DNA of 64,000 nt from a virus (Duplodnaviria > Heunggongvirae > Uroviricota > Caudoviricetes). The notes under the pieces are model-generated. The model was not told where the DNA came from, made no database searches, and saw only the letters and a program-made list of their open reading frames with translations. Each line of letters opens with the position of its first letter. Position 1 is the stretch's first letter. Both the position numbers and the translations under genes were made by a program. Location: the IMG/VR virus record IMGVR_UViG_2724679538_000004, positions 32,001 to 96,000 of that record. The stretch is one strand, 5' to 3'. Shown piece by piece: positions 417 through 32,212 of the stretch.

Positions 417-689
417 AAAGAATTATGGCGCTTGTTGAGGAAGTCACTCCTCTTACGCACTTTGTTTTGCCATGCCGGCAGTTAGCTTCTGCCTTTGACT
501 ATTCATGCGGCAACCCCGCATTTCGCCACAATGGGCAATTCACTTTAATGGAATAAACTGGCCGTTGTGTCGATTTAATTAGCATGGCCTTACCATGCTA
601 ATTTATTCAACTTGTACAATCCTACAAATCTATCCACTCAGGCTTACACCGTCTTCGTTATTGTAGAAATGAGGATCATCAGCGTTGAA

Positions 690-905
690 TCAGCTTAGAG
701 CAACGACATTTGCTGCTGCTGGGCCTTTAGCCCCATTCTCGATAGAGAATTCGACCTGCTGGCCTTCTTCCAAAGTGCGGAAATTATTACTCTGAATTGC
801 CGAAAAATGTACAAAAACATCTTTACTGCCATCAGCAGGAGAAATAAAGCCAAAGCCTTTATCAGAGTTAAACCATTTTACTAAACCAGTCATTTTATTA
901 GACAT
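690..905 (-). CDS. cold-shock protein, CspA family
   Basis: Product [23 protein letters not shown]...VFVHFSAIQ carries the RNP1/RNP2 motifs of the cold-shock domain; ATG at 905 preceded by AAGAAGG; the longer track ORF (to 1001) lacks an RBS. Confidence 0.85.
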
Positions 906-1209
906 AGATATTACCTTCTTAATTTTGTGAGCCACATAGTGCGGCGAGAATTTGATCTGTATAGATTGGGACTTACTTAGGCACTTAAGGAGGAGACTCA
1001 CGAAGAAGGGAAATCAGAAGATAACACTGAACTGAGACTGCTTTACTAAAACTGCTTACATAAGGTCTGTCTTGCAAACCAACGATGCTATTAACGCATA
1101 CCCTTTCTTTTCATGCAACCTTTATTTTTCAAAGATAACTAATTTTTGTCACCGTTGGTTTAGTAAACGTTAACGAACCAGACGATGACAGACACCTTTA
1201 CAGAGAACA

Positions 1210-9469: not shown

Positions 9470-10525
9470 CTATTTGCGAGTCTTTGCCTTGCGCAACTCT
9501 TCGAGAAGCGCCAGTTCTTCTTTACTCAACATGACCATTTTGCCTTCTTTTTCGTCAGGCGCAACGTCGATAATGTCATCTTGATTCTCATCTGGGAGGC
9601 TATATTCCGTCTCATCATTATCGATTTTTGTTGATATTTGTGCCTGGCGTAACTTTGGCCGCCTATAGTGGATGACGAAGTAGACCGAGTTTCCGCGCTT
9701 AACTTCCGTGTAATCGAGATATCCTATCTCTCGCAGCTGTTCCATAGCCTTTCTTACCGTCGCATTCTGAGTAATAGTGCGACTTGTCAGATTAAGTCTG
9801 GCGCGTAAACGGGCTAGTGATATTGGTGCCGGATCAGGCGGCAAACTTTCAATAAAAGTATAAAGCGCCTGAGCGGATTCTTTTCTTGAGAGTTCGTTTA
9901 TAGCCCGGAGTTGCAGAAGAACCTTTTTGTCGAACTGGTAGAGTTCGAAAATCTTGGGATCTGCTTTCAGTTCGACCGTATCGTGCTTGACACTATATTT
10001 TGCCGTTTGCACAAGATGCGTTACGTAAAACTCATCAGAGCCTTTGCTACGGAACGAGATGGTATTTGTGGCAATACGGCTTAGCGAACTGTCCAGGCGT
10101 TTGCGTAACTTCGCTGATGACCTGGCGGTCGGAATGCCACACAGCCTTACAAACTCAACGAACGGCAACGTGACGGTATCGCCAACGACCTTGTGTTTGG
10201 CAAACGCGTGGATTATTCCCACCCACGTTTTAAAGTCGTTATCCATATCAAGCCGAAGGCCAGAGATCCTTATGTCTTCGTACCCTTCTGCTTTTGCCAG
10301 AGACAGCTGTTTGAGTTCAGCAGAGGCATCCATAGAGACCATTTGCCCCTTTCTTCCTCTGGATGTCGATTTCAGCGTCGGAACGAAGAGGCCCAGACGC
10401 ATCAAAGCAACAGGCTGAACAGTGTTATTAGTGTTAGGAACCAACGTAACAACTTCGCCTGTCTTTTTATCTGTTTCTGAAAATGCTTCAACGATCGCTA
10501 TGTTTTTATTGCCGTTTTCGCTCAT
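9470..10525 (-). CDS. repA: plasmid-type replication initiator RepA (iteron-binding, winged-helix)
   Basis: 351-aa protein flanked on both sides by iteron arrays; basic C-terminus; architecture matches P1/F-type replicons. Confidence 0.75.
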
Positions 10526-10570
10526 TCCAAATGTCTCTTGTTATTCGACGGCTTTGGTGGCCTTTGCTGA

Positions 10571-10695
10571 TTACAGTGGATAGTAGCACTCATCACAGCG
10601 GTTATCCTACCGTCTATAGTGGTTTTTCTCCTCTCTATAGTGGTTGCTTTGCTCCCTATAGTGGATTATTTGCTCTCTATAGTGGATATCGATCA
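10571..10695. repeat. iteron array, 4-5 direct repeats of about 21 bp (core CTCTATAGTGG) upstream of repA
   Basis: ctatagtggtttttctcctctctatagtggttgctttgctccctatagtggattatttgctctctatagtggatat. Confidence 0.8.
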
Positions 10696-10699
10696 TGTC

Positions 10700-10955
10700 T
10701 GAAGGCAGATGGCACAACGGTTTGAGGTGGGCGGGGATCTTATTGGGTCTTTATGGGTCTCTTTGGTTCTCTTTGTGATCTGAATTACTGGATCGGGCCT
10801 GTGGATAAAAATCAGAGGATTACAAGAACAGGTAACTCTACTCTTCTGTGGATATTTAAGGACATAAGAATCATGACTAAGAGTAGAGTTTAAAATATAT
10901 CTATGTGTATCAGTATGTTAATGAAGAATTAAGTCATTAAGTTATCCATAAAAGA
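10700..10955. promoter_or_regulatory. AT-rich origin spacer with DnaA-box-like 9-mers (TGTGGATAA at 10800-10808; TGTGGATAT at 10855-10863; TTATCCATA at 10942-10950) and GGGTCT(C)TTT repeats
   Basis: Matches to the DnaA box consensus TTATCCACA on either strand, lying between two iteron arrays. Confidence 0.55.
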
Positions 10956-10961
10956 CAATGT

Positions 10962-11075
10962 GCTCTACTCTCTACAGTGGATATATACAGCTCTCCAGAG
11001 TGGTTGTTTTACTCTTCATAGCGGTTATTCTGCTCTCTACAGAGGTTACTTTGCTCTCCATAGTGGATGGCAACA
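10962..11075. repeat. iteron array, about 5 direct repeats (CTCTACAGTGG / CTCCAGAGTGG / CTCCATAGTGG)
   Basis: Direct repeats at about 22-bp spacing. Confidence 0.75.
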
Positions 11076-11100
11076 CCCTTTCAGACCAGTAACCGCAACG

Positions 11101-11165
11101 CCTGGAGGCGATCGGGGATCTCTTTGGATCTTCTGTTTGATCTTACTTGGGATCTCTTATTTGGA
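11101..11165. promoter_or_regulatory. cluster of GATC (Dam) sites in short direct repeats, typical of oriC/P1 oriR-type origins
   Basis: GGGGATCTCTTTGGATCTTCTGTTTGATCTTACTTGGGATCTCTTATTTGGATCTATCC has five GATC in about 60 bp. Confidence 0.55.
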
Positions 11166-11268
11166 TCTATCCAGTGGATAACTGGGATAAGTAAAACAGG
11201 CAAATGCAGATTAAGGTATGCCTAATGAGTTATCGTAGCATCGGCTAATAACTACTGAAAAAACGATT

Positions 11269-11913
11269 ATGGATCTAAAACGCACGCGCTGGGTTCGTCG
11301 TCTTGAGGACGGCTCCTACACCATCGAATCAAATTCCAACCTGAATAAGCAGAAGTTACTTTGTGATATCTGCGGTATAGCAGCGAAGTGCCCGATCTAC
11401 GAAACCAGAATTAAACTTGATAAGGCTGGTGTGAACTTTCATTTGAATAGTTGTATCAGGTACGTTCCATTGCTCGCATTTCGTAAACCGATCATCGGAT
11501 TGGATGCGCCCTACTTCAACACACTCCGTTCAGGAGTAACGTGGCGAGATCGTTTATCACCAGACAAACTGATTTGCCTTGTATCCGCAGATACAGGAAA
11601 AATCATCCGTTTTGGGAAAGTAGACAAGGTTTACTCAGGCCCAGTTGACGAGATGTTGCGGAAACACAGCCGGTTTAATCACCTCTGCATGGGTGGTGAG
11701 AAAATCGAGAAAGTTGAAGAAGTGATCCGCAAATCCTACGGACACTTCCTGACCAAAGATAGCCTGCTCACTGCAATCTACATCAGACATGTAAAACGTG
11801 AGTTCGACCTTGAATACCATAGCGAAGAAGAACTGAACCTTGTCGATCCACGTCCTAAAGCTGGCGTCATAAACATAAACGCAGCGCGTAAAAAGCCCAC
11901 TGACGCACTGTAA
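11269..11913 (+). CDS. hypothetical protein
   Basis: 214-aa ORF; CDICG...C motif near the N-terminus; no fold recognised. Confidence 0.55.
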   Translation: MDLKRTRWVRRLEDGSYTIESNSNLNKQKLLCDICGIAAKCPIYETRIKLDKAGVNFHLNSCIRYVPLLAFRKPIIGLDAPYFNTLRSGVTWRDRLSPDKLICLVSADTGKIIRFGKVDKVYSGPVDEMLRKHSRFNHLCMGGEKIEKVEEVIRKSYGHFLTKDSLLTAIYIRHVKREFDLEYHSEEELNLVDPRPKAGVININAARKKPTDAL

Positions 11914-12167
11914 CCCTCCAGAACGCATAATGGCGTAGAGTTTAACTACGCCTCATCAAAATCGCTCTCATGACGTTCTACAGTGTCACTGTCTGATTTT
12001 TAGCCACATATAAAAGCAAAGTTACGCCATTTGGAATAGGTATATACTTACTTATAAATCTTGTATATTAAGGCGCTCGTTTCATTCCTAACATACCGTT
12101 ATGCATAGTTGTTTACCTTCTTATTACTCTTAAAATTTGTATCAAAATAACCACAAAGGAAAAACAC

Positions 12168-13253
12168 ATGACTTTGCCATACGGCGTCATTTCTGACTGC
12201 CACTACCACAAATGGGATGCGTTCTCCACGACGAACGCTGAGGGGCTTAACTCCAGACTTGAAATACAGTTGGAAGCAACGAAAGAAGCAGCCATCGCCA
12301 TGAAGAAGGCCGGTTGTAAGTACATGTTGGTTGCCGGTGATACATTTCACGTCCGAGGAACTGTGTCCCCTTCTGTTCTGCATTACGTAACTGAAACGTA
12401 CAAGTGGATTATCAATGAGCTTGATTTGACAGTAGTAATGCTGGCCGGTAATCACGATCTTGAAACTAACGATTCAGTATATAGCGCCAACGCAGCGGCA
12501 TCGCTGAGTTCTATCGGCGTGGTAATCGTATGTGGCAAGCGCCCACACTCAATCAAAATCGGTGATGTCACTGTTCATCTGATTAGCTGGCGTAACAATC
12601 ATGCGGAGCTTATCAGCGATCTGAAAGCATTACGCAAAAGCGTAGAAGGCGACAACCACGACGTGGTTATCCATACATCCATTAACAAAGCCATTCCAAC
12701 AATGCCTGACGTCGGTATCGACGCGCAGGAGCTAAAGGATATCGGTTTTCGTCTTGTACTTAGTGGGCATTACCACAATCACAAAGAAGTCATTCCTGGA
12801 GTTATCAGTGTCGGTGCACTGACTCATCAGAATTGGGGAGATGTTGGATCTCTGGCGGGATATATGATCGTAAACCCAGACGGCAGTTTCAGTCACTACG
12901 AAACCAGTGCGCCTAAATTCATTAACCTGGAAGATGATGTTGCTGATGACCAGATTCGCGGCAACTACGTGCGCTTCCGTGCCGTAATCGAGAACGACGA
13001 GGAAGGCATTAAGTACCAGAATATCCTCAAAACAATGGGTGCGAAAGGTGTTGTGTGCAACTTCATCCGTAAATCATCAATGATGGAAGGTACAGCCAGC
13101 ACAACTGAAACCAGCAAAATTGATAGCCTGGGAGAGTCTGTATCTGCTTACTGCAAAATTGTTCACGATACTGACGGTGGTTTTGAACTAAGCAAGCTGG
13201 ACACCTTGTGTCAGGAGATCCTTACCGAAGCTGAGAGTTCGGAGACCGTATGA
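12168..13253 (+). CDS. SbcD/Mre11-like nuclease (calcineurin-type phosphoesterase; T4 gp47-like)
   Basis: Metallophosphatase motifs GVISDCHYH, VAGDTFH, LAGNHD; AAAGGAAAAACAC before the ATG. Confidence 0.8.
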   Translation: MTLPYGVISDCHYHKWDAFSTTNAEGLNSRLEIQLEATKEAAIAMKKAGCKYMLVAGDTFHVRGTVSPSVLHYVTETYKWIINELDLTVVMLAGNHDLETNDSVYSANAAASLSSIGVVIVCGKRPHSIKIGDVTVHLISWRNNHAELISDLKALRKSVEGDNHDVVIHTSINKAIPTMPDVGIDAQELKDIGFRLVLSGHYHNHKEVIPGVISVGALTHQNWGDVGSLAGYMIVNPDGSFSHYETSAPKFINLEDDVADDQIRGNYVRFRAVIENDEEGIKYQNILKTMGAKGVVCNFIRKSSMMEGTASTTETSKIDSLGESVSAYCKIVHDTDGGFELSKLDTLCQEILTEAESSETV

Positions 13254-26438: not shown

Positions 26439-27032
26439 ATGATAGCGGCTGAGAAAATTAAAAAACGAGAGCGTGACCCTTCTCTTAGAGATCTATGGCG
26501 CACACCTCAATGGTTGTTTAACGCTATCCAGAAATACTTAGGTGTTCAATTCGATGTGGACGTTGCCTGCAACAAAGACAACGCTCTTCTTGCAAATTAC
26601 ATAGGCGTGGAGCGTGATGCTTTGAAAAGCAACTGGGGAGAACCGGGCACTATAGCATTCCTAAACCCGCCCTACTCGAAAATTTCCCCGTGGATCGAGG
26701 CCGCAATACGCGAACAAGCACGAGGTGTCACTACAGTTATGCTTATACCACAATCCCTTGATACAAAATGGTATGAGCGGGCCACTGAGCACGCAAACGA
26801 AACGGTTATTCTGTCTGGAGGTCGTGTGGCTTTCGTGGAACCAGACGTTAATTTGGGATTTGTGGAGGTAAACATTAACCCTGGTGGAAGTATGCTTCTG
26901 ATTTTTAGAGGCTTTTGTCAGGGAGCTGGACACACGATTAGAAAAATTCCTCTGGCGGTGTTGAAACAGCTGGGGGGTTATGATCCTGCCAATGTTTCCA
27001 GAAAGAAAAGAACATACAAGAAGGCAGCTTAA
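26439..27032 (+). CDS. DNA N6-adenine methyltransferase (phage Dam-like)
   Basis: Catalytic motif IV NPPYS within FLNPPYSKISPWIE; small size typical of phage orphan Dam enzymes. Confidence 0.8.
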   Translation: MIAAEKIKKRERDPSLRDLWRTPQWLFNAIQKYLGVQFDVDVACNKDNALLANYIGVERDALKSNWGEPGTIAFLNPPYSKISPWIEAAIREQARGVTTVMLIPQSLDTKWYERATEHANETVILSGGRVAFVEPDVNLGFVEVNINPGGSMLLIFRGFCQGAGHTIRKIPLAVLKQLGGYDPANVSRKKRTYKKAA

Positions 27033-27056
27033 GTTCTGTCTGGGAGTGTTCTTGGA

Positions 27057-27114
27057 CCTGCTTCTGTATAAATAAATACATACTAATATATTAATATACA
27101 GATGCAGGTTTTTT
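27057..27114 (+). terminator. long hairpin CCTGCTTCTGTATA-(AT-rich loop)-TATACAGATGCAGG followed by T6
   Basis: 14-bp inverted repeat plus T-run after the Dam stop; a related element occurs at 56601-56703. Confidence 0.55.
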
Positions 27115-27214
27115 GTAGCAAACGTGCCAGACCTTGACAACATCCCAGAACCCACTAGAAACCCTCCCCAGACGCTCTAGAATCAATTTTGAGTAGCAAA
27201 GTAAGGAAACACAC

Positions 27215-27445
27215 ATGGTCTATCAAACAAACGTTGTAGCGCTCGTTGAGAGCGATTTTCTAGCCCAGGCGCGTGAAATGCTTAAAGATCGCGAGCGGGC
27301 GTTTAATTTGTATGAATGGGCACTCAAATGCCTACATCTTGGCGAGCATAAAGAACTTGTTGAACAGCTGTTAGGTGAGTTGATTAATGAGGTGTTTGCC
27401 TTAAACGTCCAGCTACATGGGCGAGAAAGTAACCAACCCCAATAA
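27215..27445 (+). CDS. hypothetical protein
   Basis: 76-aa ORF with AAGGAAACACAC RBS context. Confidence 0.45.
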   Translation: MVYQTNVVALVESDFLAQAREMLKDRERAFNLYEWALKCLHLGEHKELVEQLLGELINEVFALNVQLHGRESNQPQ

Positions 27446-27469
27446 TAGATAAGTACCTACTATTCATAT

Positions 27470-27990
27470 TATTTATCTTAAGTGATAGGATACTATAGTT
27501 TTCAGTCCATGTACTGGAGACTCGACCTGATGGGTGGAGGGTAGCGTCACTGGCGTCAGGTTTAAAAAAAAGCTCACTACCAGCGTAGAACCGGTGCCGT
27601 TTAGGCGCTGGGGAAGGGGGAACCAGAGTGAGCAGAGACAAGGGTCACTTTATGATTGTCGAGTCTGGGAAGTTCGAGAGGTTGAATCCAGTACTCCCCT
27701 TCATAAAGTGTGGGAAGATCTCGGTTCTGGGATGCTGTCATCCATAACTTCCCAAGCTTAAGCTGGCAGTAGACTTAAGCCATAACTTTTCAGGTTATGA
27801 AACGACCAGGTTGGTGAGGAACTTTTGTACTCACCTCCCTGGGAGGATATTACCTGAAAAGACAACCTCTCACTTCGTTCGAGGTGAACTTCACTCACTT
27901 CGTTCGTTCAGTTCAGATTAATTAAAAACCTCTTCTGGGAAGTAAGGTTTTAAAAAATAAATTTATTATTAATAAGTTATAACACGCACG
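27470..27990 (+). ncRNA. candidate structured non-coding region (consecutive hairpins, short repeats, alternating purine-pyrimidine GC tract)
   Basis: About 520 bp without a convincing ORF; hairpins GCTTAAG...CTTAAGC, CATAAC...GTTATG, GGTGAG...CTCACC; repeats CTGGGAAG x3 and CACTTCGTTCG x2; CACGCACGCGTGTGCGCACGCGCG at 27975-27998. Confidence 0.3.
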
Positions 27991-28044
27991 CGTGTGCGCA
28001 CGCGCGAGGAAAAAATCGGCGCGGCGCTTGATTCAGGAGTTTAT

Positions 28045-28641
28045 ATGACGACGAAGACACCAGCCCGATCGCAAGCAAAAACTCTCAAAAAAGCCAAAAA
28101 CAAAAATTCTCCCCGCACCAATCACACAACGCCTGTCGTAGAGTTCAATCCCCAGCTTAAAACCGTGAAAATCTTTAGTGATGGCTCTTGCCTTAAAAAT
28201 CCGGGTGGTCCTGGCGGTTACGGTATCGTTCTCCAGTATCGTGGTGAGGAACGCGAGTTCTCAGATGGTTTTCATAGCACCACTAATAACCGCATGGAGA
28301 TGATGGGCGCACTCATCGGGCTGGAGCGTTTGAAATATCCATGCAACGTTATTTTGTACTCTGATAGCCAGTATCTGAAAAACGGCATGACACAGTGGAT
28401 GAAATGGTGGAAACGAAATGGATGGATGACTTCTGATAAAAAACCGGTAAAGAATGTTGATCTGTGGAAGCGTCTGGATGAGGCCGCAAGTCGACATAAT
28501 GTTCGCTGGAAGTGGGTTAAAGGCCATGCGGGACATCGTGAAAACGAGATCTGTGATCGTCTTGCTAAGATTGCAGCATTCACTGCCGCTGATACTCCAT
28601 TTAAAAAAGATTTAGGTTTTTTGAATCAAAATAGTAAGTAA
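28045..28641 (+). CDS. rnhA: ribonuclease HI with basic N-terminal extension
   Basis: [71 protein letters not shown] closely match E. coli RNase HI; ATG 28045 with GGAG RBS (track ORF starts at GTG 27994). Confidence 0.9.
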
Positions 28642-28783
28642 GTATTTACCTATTATTTAGATTAAGGTATTCTGATCACCGTCAGGATGACAATGTGTCG
28701 GTGAGACACAGTTCCAGGATGGAACGGGAAAGGCGGCTGGTTAATGCCAGCCGCAACTCTTTCTGACACTGGATGGAGTCCTA

Positions 28784-29281
28784 ATGGCACGTCAAACCTA
28801 TTTCACTTCTGCAACTAAAAGCAAACGCCCACGCTCTTTACGTCAAATTTTGGCCGAGCTATTTAGCGGTCGCGCTTTGTCACGCCTTGATGAACTGGAG
28901 TCTACCGTTCAGTTGCTGACGAAACGTTTAGATGATCAAGCATCAGTCGTTGCGAATATGGGGGCGATTGTTACCTCTCGTTCTTCACGCGAGGCGAAAA
29001 AAGTACGTCCTTTAGTGAAGGAGAAAAATAACAAGGACAGTTCGAATGGAAAATTTTCAAAGAAAGAGGCTGAAACCAATGGCCTACGCTCTCATTTTGC
29101 TTTCACTGGCGACGGTAGCCGTCCCAGCAGGCCAGAGCCTTTTGATGCAGGATTCTTCCACCACACGTCAGCCGACGACAATTTCCACCGCTCCAGTGGA
29201 GCGTCCTGTCTCTCTGGATGGGATGTCGGTGGATGCGATACCTCAAGTTCATCCAGTTACTCTGGATCATGCTGCGATTAA
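28784..29281 (+). CDS. hypothetical protein (C-terminal third is Ser-rich low complexity and overlaps the next ORF; true 3' end uncertain)
   Basis: 165-aa ORF; N-terminal 90 aa look protein-like. Confidence 0.3.
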   Translation: MARQTYFTSATKSKRPRSLRQILAELFSGRALSRLDELESTVQLLTKRLDDQASVVANMGAIVTSRSSREAKKVRPLVKEKNNKDSSNGKFSKKEAETNGLRSHFAFTGDGSRPSRPEPFDAGFFHHTSADDNFHRSSGASCLSGWDVGGCDTSSSSSYSGSCCD

Positions 29282-31768: not shown

Positions 31769-32212
31769 TTAAATACCAGGATTAGATAAATTGTCTATGA
31801 ATGTGCGGGTGGTATTGACAAATCCAGACCCAGAAAAGCGCATAATGAAGCCGTTTTCATCAAAAGTTACGCTCTTTTTATTCATAAATTCATTAAAAAT
31901 ATGATTTGTGCCTGCTCTTGTTGAGGGATACCAATATATTCCCATATCACTGTCGCAGTCCTGATGCATGCGAACCTTTACACCGTTTATTTGCATGGGG
32001 ACTGACTCGCCTGTTGTAGTGCATTTTTGTGATCTGTATGGTGTTAAGTATAAACCAGGTTCATTACCCTTTGATCTGGCAATAAAAATATACCAATTGC
32101 CGTCATCTGACAGTACTGCCGGAAGACTGTTCTTGGCTATATACCATCCTTCGGCGTTTGCCACAGATATTGAGCCGAATGTCAGAAGCATTGCGGCGAT
32201 AAATTTATGCAT
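31769..32212 (-). CDS. secreted protein with signal peptide (isolated reverse-strand gene)
   Basis: MHKFIAAMLLTFGSISVANA signal peptide; AAAGAGG RBS. Confidence 0.55.
   Translation of the reverse strand: MHKFIAAMLLTFGSISVANAEGWYIAKNSLPAVLSDDGNWYIFIARSKGNEPGLYLTPYRSQKCTTTGESVPMQINGVKVRMHQDCDSDMGIYWYPSTRAGTNHIFNEFMNKKSVTFDENGFIMRFSGSGFVNTTRTFIDNLSNPGI

Follow-up and report, generated by a model that had tools for sequence, protein, structure and literature searches.

In the 64,000-nucleotide (nt) stretch of DNA analysed here (hereafter the window; positions 32,001 to 96,000 of IMG/VR virus record IMGVR_UViG_2724679538_000004, a virus of the Caudoviricetes), which its database matches identify as an SSU5-like phage-plasmid, the interval between a gene for a 76-amino-acid (aa) protein and rnhA, the gene for RNase HI, very probably holds an independent, highly structured non-coding RNA gene of about 450 nt on the plus strand (approximately 27498-27955). 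An earlier note, made by a model from the letters of the sequence, had described 27470-27990 as a folded non-coding interval and had offered a small RNA, a regulatory leader for rnhA, and a packaging or lytic-origin sequence as possible explanations. The folded non-coding interval is real and an RNA is what it contains, whereas some of the hairpins, the repeat counts and the overlap of a GC tract with the RNase HI frame were misdescribed, and we retain neither the rnhA leader as the defining role of the interval nor a packaging site or lytic origin. The features that mark an independent non-coding RNA gene were found together at this locus, namely a promoter and a 3' terminator (both predicted), covariation, the lack of a conserved open reading frame (ORF), and a transcript signal separate from that of the neighbours, and a stable RNA is the best explanation for them.

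The plus strand of 27470-27990 folded with z = -5.3, and none of the 100 dinucleotide shuffles folded as well, so that the comparison with shuffled sequence proposed in the earlier note came out in favour of structure; 27497-27955 on the same strand gave z = -4.9, and the minus strand gave z = -3.7. RNAalifold applied to 58 close relatives predicted 128 pairs, 8 of them compensatory, with almost no broken pairs. Covariation was then scored on a 120-pair structure in 12 diverse homologues (mean column identity 63%), with 500 shuffles and slid controls for comparison. In the homologues 92.6% of cells were paired, against 82.6±0.5% in the shuffles and 37-50% in the slid controls; 60 of the 120 pairs had changed on both sides, a number reached by 0/500 shuffles (29±3.2) and compared with 16-22 in the slid controls; and the covariation score was 0.375, against 0.205 and 0.06-0.11, respectively. 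Whole helix arms have been exchanged with the pairing maintained, for example ACCUGA/UCAGGU for GUUACG/CGUAAC, UGGGAAG/CUUCCCA for AGGAAGG/CCUUCCU, and CACUUUAUGA/UCAUAAAGUG for CACUGUAGG/CCUACAGUG. A fold of about 19 helices kept by compensatory substitutions is strongly supported. Moreover, the pairs of these 12 homologues included 168 G-U cells and 27 A-C cells, an excess that fixes the plus strand and argues against a site acting as duplex DNA.

Most of the hairpins listed in the earlier note belong to this fold. GCTTAAG/CTTAAGC is helix 15, with compensatory changes in 8 of its 10 pairs, and GGTGAG/CTCACC is kept as helix 17. CATAAC/GTTATG covaries to CAUAGU/GCUAUG in three lineages and overlaps a competing long-range helix, CUUUUCAGGU/ACCUGAAAAG; each of the two overlapping helices keeps its pairing in divergent lineages. 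The CCTCCC/GGGAGG hairpin did not hold, as it implied a 1-nt loop and is weakened in relatives (GGGAGA, GGGAAA); in its place the alignment fold pairs CCAGG with CCUGG, a helix so nearly invariant that covariation lends it no support. The repeats were described correctly in part: CTCACTTCGTTCG occurs twice (27869 and 27894), while CTGGGAAG occurs exactly twice (27665 and 27935) and not three times, the supposed third copy being GTGGGAAG (27711). Only this window has the first copy of CTGGGAAG, and three lineages have lost the second copy of CTCACTTCG.

The extent of the gene was judged from an alignment of 50 unique homologous segments across 2.8 kb. Nucleotide diversity was 0.12-0.25 in the flanking protein genes, 0.32-0.39 in the promoter-proximal 27439-27518, and just 0.01-0.10 in 27519-27918, within which 27679-27918 is nearly invariant in the main group; in 27919-28038, comprising an AT-rich stretch and the GC tract, variability was like that of the genes and indels were present. 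This minimum indicates that conservation is concentrated in a block of about 400 nt, which ends before the GC tract. The block forms a multi-helix RNA core (27520-27918, plus strand, about 19 predicted helices) that is defined by its low diversity, its covariation, the G-U to A-C ratio and the expression of CYRAN_81 (see below); its 5' half is G-rich and its 3' half pyrimidine-rich, and many of its unpaired nucleotides are invariant across host genera. Divergent members (L077/L078, L080, L161, L160 and L158) were recovered through the linked 76-aa protein family, and their RNAs are 68-73% identical or detectable only with a profile. The earlier statement that the interval has no convincing ORF was borne out, 27446-28044 being free of any ORF conserved across homologues: a 75-aa ORF is broken by a poly-A run (27564-27571) whose length ranges from 5 to 8 A among them, and a 39-aa ORF loses its ATG and its frame in the L077, L080 and L160 lineages.

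At the 5' side, the sole conserved block in the variable 27446-27518 is an extended -10 element, TGnTAnnAT (TGATAGGAT in the window; 27483-27491, plus strand). The TGnTA..AT pattern is kept in most lineages, and TG-proximal -10-like elements occur in L077, L080, L161, L160 and L158. A putative sigma-70 promoter of the extended -10 type, belonging to the RNA itself, is strongly supported by this comparison, and transcription is predicted to start near 27498. The predicted transcript opens with a 5'-terminal hairpin (27497-27522, plus strand; core CAGU/ACUG at 27503-27516) that abuts an invariant CUCG and was recognised by comparison of lineages and in minimum-energy folds; it is found in every lineage in unrelated sequences that keep the pairing (CCGGAUUGAUUCCGG, CUGGCAGAUGUAUCUGCCAG, UUUCGACCUGAAUCGAAA, GUCUGGCUAGCCAGAC and GUCAGUUACAAAACUGAC).

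At the 3' side, the folds place a stem (AACCUCUUCUGGGAAGUAAGGUU) and a U-run at 27925-27955 (plus strand), a probable intrinsic terminator, and in most lineages a U-rich tract follows soon after the conserved UCUGGGAAG stem (GUUUUUCUUUUC, GUUUUUUUAUU, AAUUUUUUAUU and GAUUUUUUAA). Beyond it lies an AT-rich spacer (27956-27983, unstranded) of variable sequence and length, with a diversity of about 0.18 and indels in 15-21% of alignment cells, and then the alternating purine-pyrimidine GC tract (CACGCACGCGTGTGCGCACGCGCG; 27984-28007, plus strand), between the probable 3' end of the RNA and the start of rnhA. This 24-nt tract is present as the earlier note described it. The overlap with the RNase HI frame, by contrast, involves only a mechanical GTG-started ORF, as the true start of rnhA is the ATG at 28045, preceded by an AGGAG ribosome-binding site; in relatives, indels of 1-13 nt occur between the tract and this ATG, and we therefore regard the tract as untranslated. 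Its diversity (about 0.17) is no better than that of the flanking genes, point changes and deletions of 10-13 nt occur in some relatives, it lies outside the RNA, and nothing was found in support of the Z-DNA potential once suggested for it. A related CGCACGCGAG motif stands 3' of the RNA in L077, L080, L160 and L161, and not in L158.

Expression of the block is documented in a homologue. Escherichia phage Cyrano annotates the middle of the block as a hypothetical coding sequence (CDS), CYRAN_81, and the published RNA sequencing (RNA-seq) data, which refer to an E. coli LF82/Cyrano lysogen and not to this exact element, show the signal for which the earlier note had recommended a search. In the LF82 prophage study CYRAN_81 is among the lysogen-expressed genes, 12-fold above the prophage background (PMC9928086, Table 1), with normalised reads of 117, compared with 9.5 for the 76-aa gene (CYRAN_80), 8.4 for rnhA and 96 for the putative repressor (PMC9928086, S1 Table). 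In all five conditions of that data set CYRAN_81 lies 3-5 log2 units above both neighbours, its profile tracks that of the repressor, and read density falls 14-fold from CYRAN_81 to rnhA. A high CYRAN_81 between low flanks implies that a promoter lies between the block and the 76-aa gene, that the RNA has an efficient 3' end ahead of rnhA, and that the two are active in lysogeny. Transcription of the RNA in lysogeny at about the level of the repressor, with its neighbours at background, is strongly supported. Taken with covariation, the G-U to A-C ratio, the promoter, the 5' hairpin and the 3' stem with its U-tail, the RNA-seq signal sustains the small-RNA suggestion of the earlier note as far as a plus-strand transcript is concerned, but the transcript, with its length and its number of helices, far exceeds a typical small RNA in size and elaboration. 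Another lysogeny-expressed "moron" of the same phage, CYRAN_40 (L282 39021-39356), is a hypothetical CDS overlapped on the opposite strand by genes for tRNA-Thr and tRNA-Ser, and its signal is probably that of tRNA; the read counts may therefore not be strand-specific, and at least two Cyrano morons (CYRAN_40 and CYRAN_81) would be RNA genes.

The RNA matched no family in the databases searched. The Rfam/Infernal scan that the earlier note had proposed found no known family in the interval: over the whole window at the Rfam 15 gathering threshold it reported only cspA (665-1083), and at permissive thresholds 27000-28900, 27490-27965 and the divergent homologue L160 returned only sub-threshold microRNA, small nucleolar RNA and clustered regularly interspaced short palindromic repeat (CRISPR) noise. 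A scan for tRNA and transfer-messenger RNA gave none. No description of the RNA was found in the searchable literature, whether by topic or by sequence string, and the Klebsiella p2 paper has no transcript data. The Prokaryotic Genome Annotation Pipeline (PGAP) had annotated nothing beneath the match in the elements of 232 E. coli genomes, and in every deposited record inspected the RNA was either unannotated or called a hypothetical protein. The RNA family is new relative to Rfam 15 and the searchable literature.

A 600-nt intergenic query matched 687 plasmids in PLSDB; most of them are non-mobilizable and about 110 kb long, and the plasmids come from Klebsiella, Escherichia, Enterobacter, Salmonella, Citrobacter and Cronobacter. 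The RNA was present in 232 of the 5426 complete E. coli genomes (4.3%) and on 76 IMG/VR contigs, and a 19-nt core pattern recovered 23 true homologues among 80 metagenome loci, none of them more divergent than the L077 group. Each element has one copy, and all carriers are SSU5-like elements of Enterobacteriaceae. A genome scan for distant homologues with the 76-aa protein profile gave two Kluyvera loci only, and neither viral nor metagenome contigs matched a pattern specific to the L160/L158 lineage. In L159 (3226-3796), the 76-aa gene and a terminator-like hairpin are followed by a G-rich non-coding gap of 570 nt before rnhA; this gap has no detectable similarity to the RNA, and its content may be a homologue that has diverged too far to be detected, or an RNA that is analogous but unrelated.

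What the RNA does is a matter for more cautious wording. We propose a trans-acting role in lysogeny, in which the RNA would most probably bind a protein or some other conserved component of the cell or the phage, and we propose that its terminator would incidentally insulate rnhA and the early genes beyond from lysogenic transcription. Action through binding is suggested because many unpaired nucleotides are invariant across genera and because no extended antisense target was found in its own genome: the search gave no complementarity of at least 14 nt in the rest of the window or in 98 kb (about 90%) of the Cyrano genome, and complementary 12-13-mers were at chance level. As a compromise estimate, we consider the RNA gene together with a trans-acting lysogeny role to be the somewhat favoured combined explanation; the trans-acting role taken by itself falls a little short of an even chance. 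A more specific version, in which the RNA would represent a new class of large structured RNAs and would engage a conserved host machine (RNA polymerase, the ribosome or translation factors, an RNase, or a defence or repair complex), is tentative and rather doubtful.

Like OLE, GOLLD, ROOL and raiA, the SSU5-type RNA is large, with many covarying helices and many invariant unpaired nucleotides; those RNAs, too, often lie on prophages or mobile elements and were found by comparative genomics before a biochemical role. It differs from them in having no Rfam 15 match and a narrower range, one phage-plasmid family in Enterobacteriaceae. The type of mechanism that we infer, a stable abundant non-coding RNA that binds a conserved protein, is that of 6S RNA and of the CsrB type, although the SSU5-type RNA has neither the rod-with-bulge architecture of 6S nor the GGA-loop enrichment of the CsrB type, and has no Rfam match. 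A CsrA sponge was considered and rejected: no CsrB-clan match lies inside the RNA, and most of its approximately 9 GGA fall by eye in predicted stems. That number in 450 nt is, by our estimate and judgement, near chance for the G-rich composition.

Several points weigh against this reading of the gene and of its role. Both transcript ends are placed from sequence (5' at about 27498, 3' at about 27955), and the U-tract is absent in L161 and is weak or several nt further downstream in L077 and L158; with the tract weak or displaced in L077 and L161, the drop in reads before rnhA could partly reflect processing or decay. The LF82 counts are possibly not strand-specific. The near-invariance within the main group could in part result from recombinational homogenisation and not from selection at each base. 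The trans-acting role is deduced from the conservation pattern and the expression alone. Finally, the full-palindrome search of the window (see below) gave no palindrome-type promoter at rnhA, and rnhA would therefore probably be expressed by read-through in lytic growth, which may give the RNA a role in cis.

This last point leads to the main rival explanation, which we judge unlikely, though less so than the others: a leader or attenuator acting in cis, perhaps of the P4 CI, P1 c4 and N15 CB immunity type, in which a constitutive promoter and premature termination in lysogeny would gate rnhA (and in SSU5 the antirepressor further on), and in which a processed piece may enforce the termination. 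The RNA and the downstream genes share a strand, and the terminator stands immediately before those genes; in the lysogen the read density falls 14-fold ahead of rnhA, rnhA is without a palindrome-type promoter of its own, and the SSU5 Ant gene lies about 1.5 kb downstream. The overlapping CAUAAC/GUUAUG and CUUUUCAGGU/ACCUGAAAAG helices, both of them kept, hint at a switch; this pair does not involve the terminator. In P4 lysogens, abundant short leader transcripts accompany silent downstream genes, which fits such a leader. The resemblance extends to the C4 family as a whole (P1/P7 c4, P4 CI and N15 CB; RF01695), whose RNAs are likewise encoded by temperate elements including phage-plasmids, are constitutive in lysogeny upstream of silent lytic-cycle genes, and end before those genes; in the homologue, too, lysogenic transcription ends before the downstream genes (CYRAN_81 117 versus rnhA 8.4).

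Nevertheless, C4-family RNAs are processed to 70-90 nt and have conserved target repeats, whereas the SSU5-type RNA is about 450 nt long with about 19 helices, is without conserved repeats, and precedes variable genes. No match to the Rfam C4 family was found even at E <= 10. The internal repeats are not conserved, CUGGGAAG having its first copy in this window only and CUCACUUCG having lost its second copy in three lineages, and we therefore reject a P4-like logic of repeat and target; the pairing of ACUUCCCA with the 3' UGGGAAGU does not covary and fails in L077, L080, L161 and L158. About 400 near-invariant nt with about 19 helices also exceed the needs of any known attenuator. The rnhA leader of the earlier note is not supported as the defining role on two counts, for the RNA is about 14-fold above rnhA in the lysogen and the downstream gene family is not constant. 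The RNA precedes a Tad2-like gene in L161; in L158 it directly precedes the palindromic motif and then a gene of unknown function, a homologue of the one next after rnhA in the window, and neither lineage has rnhA at that position. As both of these lineages nonetheless retain the RNA, it is not an rnhA-specific leader. The gene upstream of the RNA, in turn, is the 76-aa gene in all lineages found; linkage of the RNA to the 76-aa gene and not to rnhA is strongly supported, and rnhA looks like a cassette behind the terminator of the RNA.

A replication pre-primer or R-loop origin transcript (of the type of ColE1 RNA II or T4 oriF/oriG), processed by the adjacent RNase HI, is improbable. It would account for the position of the RNA in a module of replication, recombination and nucleotide metabolism, for a length of about 450 nt comparable to that of RNA II, for the G-rich 5' half with GC skew up to +0.33, and for the AT-rich stretch that follows it. 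Indeed, the SSU5-type RNA resembles ColE1 RNA II in being several hundred nt long, highly folded and constitutive in the plasmid state, and the functional link of RNA II to RNase H recalls the RNase H encoded beside the SSU5-type RNA in most lineages. Unlike RNA II, however, it ends at a stem and U-tract in most lineages, and it has no predicted RNA I-like promoter, no minus-strand promoter-like site having been found within it in a consensus scan. L158 and L161 have no rnhA next to the RNA, and the AT-rich spacer is poorly conserved (diversity about 0.18, with indels). The repA gene and the DnaA boxes of the candidate origin are about 17 kb away, none of these boxes occurs in the interval, and cumulative GC skew has no inflection at the locus, although the absence of DnaA boxes and of a skew inflection is compatible with a DnaA-independent origin.

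Still less probable is a cis site at the DNA level (pac, a recombination or resolution site, or a "linker" for module exchange) with incidental transcription. Extreme conservation between mosaic flanks would suit such a site, as would phage record PQ492289.1, which begins at the start of the 76-aa gene. On the other hand, divergent lineages change the sequence and keep the base-pairing, G-U is tolerated six times more than A-C, a strand-specific preference not to be expected of duplex DNA, the block comes with a conserved promoter of its own and a 5' hairpin, and no repeated protein-binding motifs or iterons occur in it. The packaging or lytic-origin option of the earlier note was likewise set aside, given that the interval has no DnaA boxes or iterons and no GC-skew inflection; expression of the transcript in lysogeny in particular argues against a lytic origin. 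Least probable of all is conservation due to coding for the small protein CYRAN_81 (39 aa here, 27628-27747), which has a CDS annotation in Cyrano and its report as a lysogeny-expressed "moron" in its favour, but whose GTG/ATG start and frame are not kept in L077, L080, L160 and L161 (indels), whose ORF is exceeded by the conservation by about 100 nt upstream and about 170 nt downstream, whose substitutions are paired and compensatory, and for which PGAP calls no gene in 232 E. coli plasmids.

The assignment of the window to an SSU5-like phage-plasmid, nearest to elements of E. fergusonii and E. coli, was made by sequence comparison. It follows from the matches of the 1.5 kb around the locus (89% to Escherichia phage Cyrano, 80% to Salmonella phage SSU5 and about 77% to Klebsiella phage-plasmids), from the PLSDB plasmid matches, and from the 100% identity of the upstream 76-aa protein to an Escherichia fergusonii protein. 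The locus lies within a long run of plus-strand genes for replication, recombination and nucleotide metabolism, with a RepA gene about 17 kb upstream. The 76-aa gene (27215-27445, plus strand), taken from the ORF list, belongs to phrog_5343 (PHROG match E = 2e-48), and its homologues form 44 protein clusters, all from Enterobacteriaceae. The rnhA gene (28045-28641, plus strand) encodes an RNase HI that is extended by about 40 aa at its N terminus (Pfam RNase_H E = 1e-45, residues 40-178). A Dam methylase gene lies upstream, and in some lineages a Tad2-like (anti-Thoeris) gene lies just 3' of the RNA or of rnhA (L077 4605-4916, L078 4605-4916 and L161 4098-4412); together these suggest that the neighbourhood serves as a variable slot in which counter-defence cassettes are carried.

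Upstream of the predicted promoter, a degenerate copy of a palindromic operator-like motif (consensus AATAGGTAAGTACTTACCTATT; 27441-27464, unstranded), found by a half-site search and conserved in position in relatives, overlaps the stop codon of the 76-aa gene, with its centre about 45 nt upstream of the predicted RNA start. The half-sites matched 16 times in the window, where 0.17 matches were expected; when the full palindrome was required, the stricter search gave 12 other sites, every one at the start or end of a gene, and did not list the degenerate copy at 27441. The approximately 13 sites, of about 22 nt each (2783, 6278, 12035, 16700, 21428, 26405, 27441, 28633, 34146, 53160, 58681, 60196 and 62119), always lie at gene boundaries in the early-gene block, and their right edge is often a TATTAT-like -10 element. 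The set looks like dispersed operators of the prophage repressor or of another regulator, and the scattered C1 operators of P1 resemble it.

Further elements were noticed elsewhere in the window. Behind rnhA, a 165-aa gene at 28784 has a conserved structured leader (28662-28783, plus strand; fold z = -4.6) with a GGA in the loop of a GUUCCA-GGA-UGGAAC hairpin, a GGA in UCAGGAUGA, a GGA overlapping the Shine-Dalgarno sequence (CUGGAUGGAG), and a conserved GCGGCUGG/CCAGCCGC hairpin. By these motifs it resembles leaders of the CsrA-repressed type, and its sole database signal was a weak sub-threshold CsrB-clan match (E = 0.28, 28660-28808). The cspA match is a full-length 5' untranslated region thermoregulator (665-1083, minus strand; RF01766, 185.7 bits, E = 2e-49), and the phage-plasmid therefore carries a cold-shock-protein gene with an RNA thermosensor. 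DnaA-box matches numbered 27 in the window against 15.8 expected and cluster at 10.2-12.7 kb beside the repA homologue, including one exact TTATCCACA at 10800 (minus strand); 10200-12700 is the probable plasmid origin.

For the published account of Cyrano, these results mean a correction: the lysogeny-expressed "moron" CYRAN_81 is an RNA and not a protein gene. The RNA is also an added candidate on the short list of large bacterial RNAs without an assigned function. Clinical E. coli, Klebsiella, Salmonella (including S. Typhi, with pHCM2), Enterobacter and Cronobacter commonly harbour SSU5-like phage-plasmids, which can carry resistance genes. The size of the RNA, its conservation and its expression in the dormant state suggest that it is likely to matter for persistence, for the decision between plasmid and lysis, or for interaction with the host. 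If the RNA did engage a conserved host machine, the more doubtful version considered above, it would be an RNA-only lysogeny function without an adjacent protein partner, one that would stabilise the plasmid-prophage state or exclude competitors.

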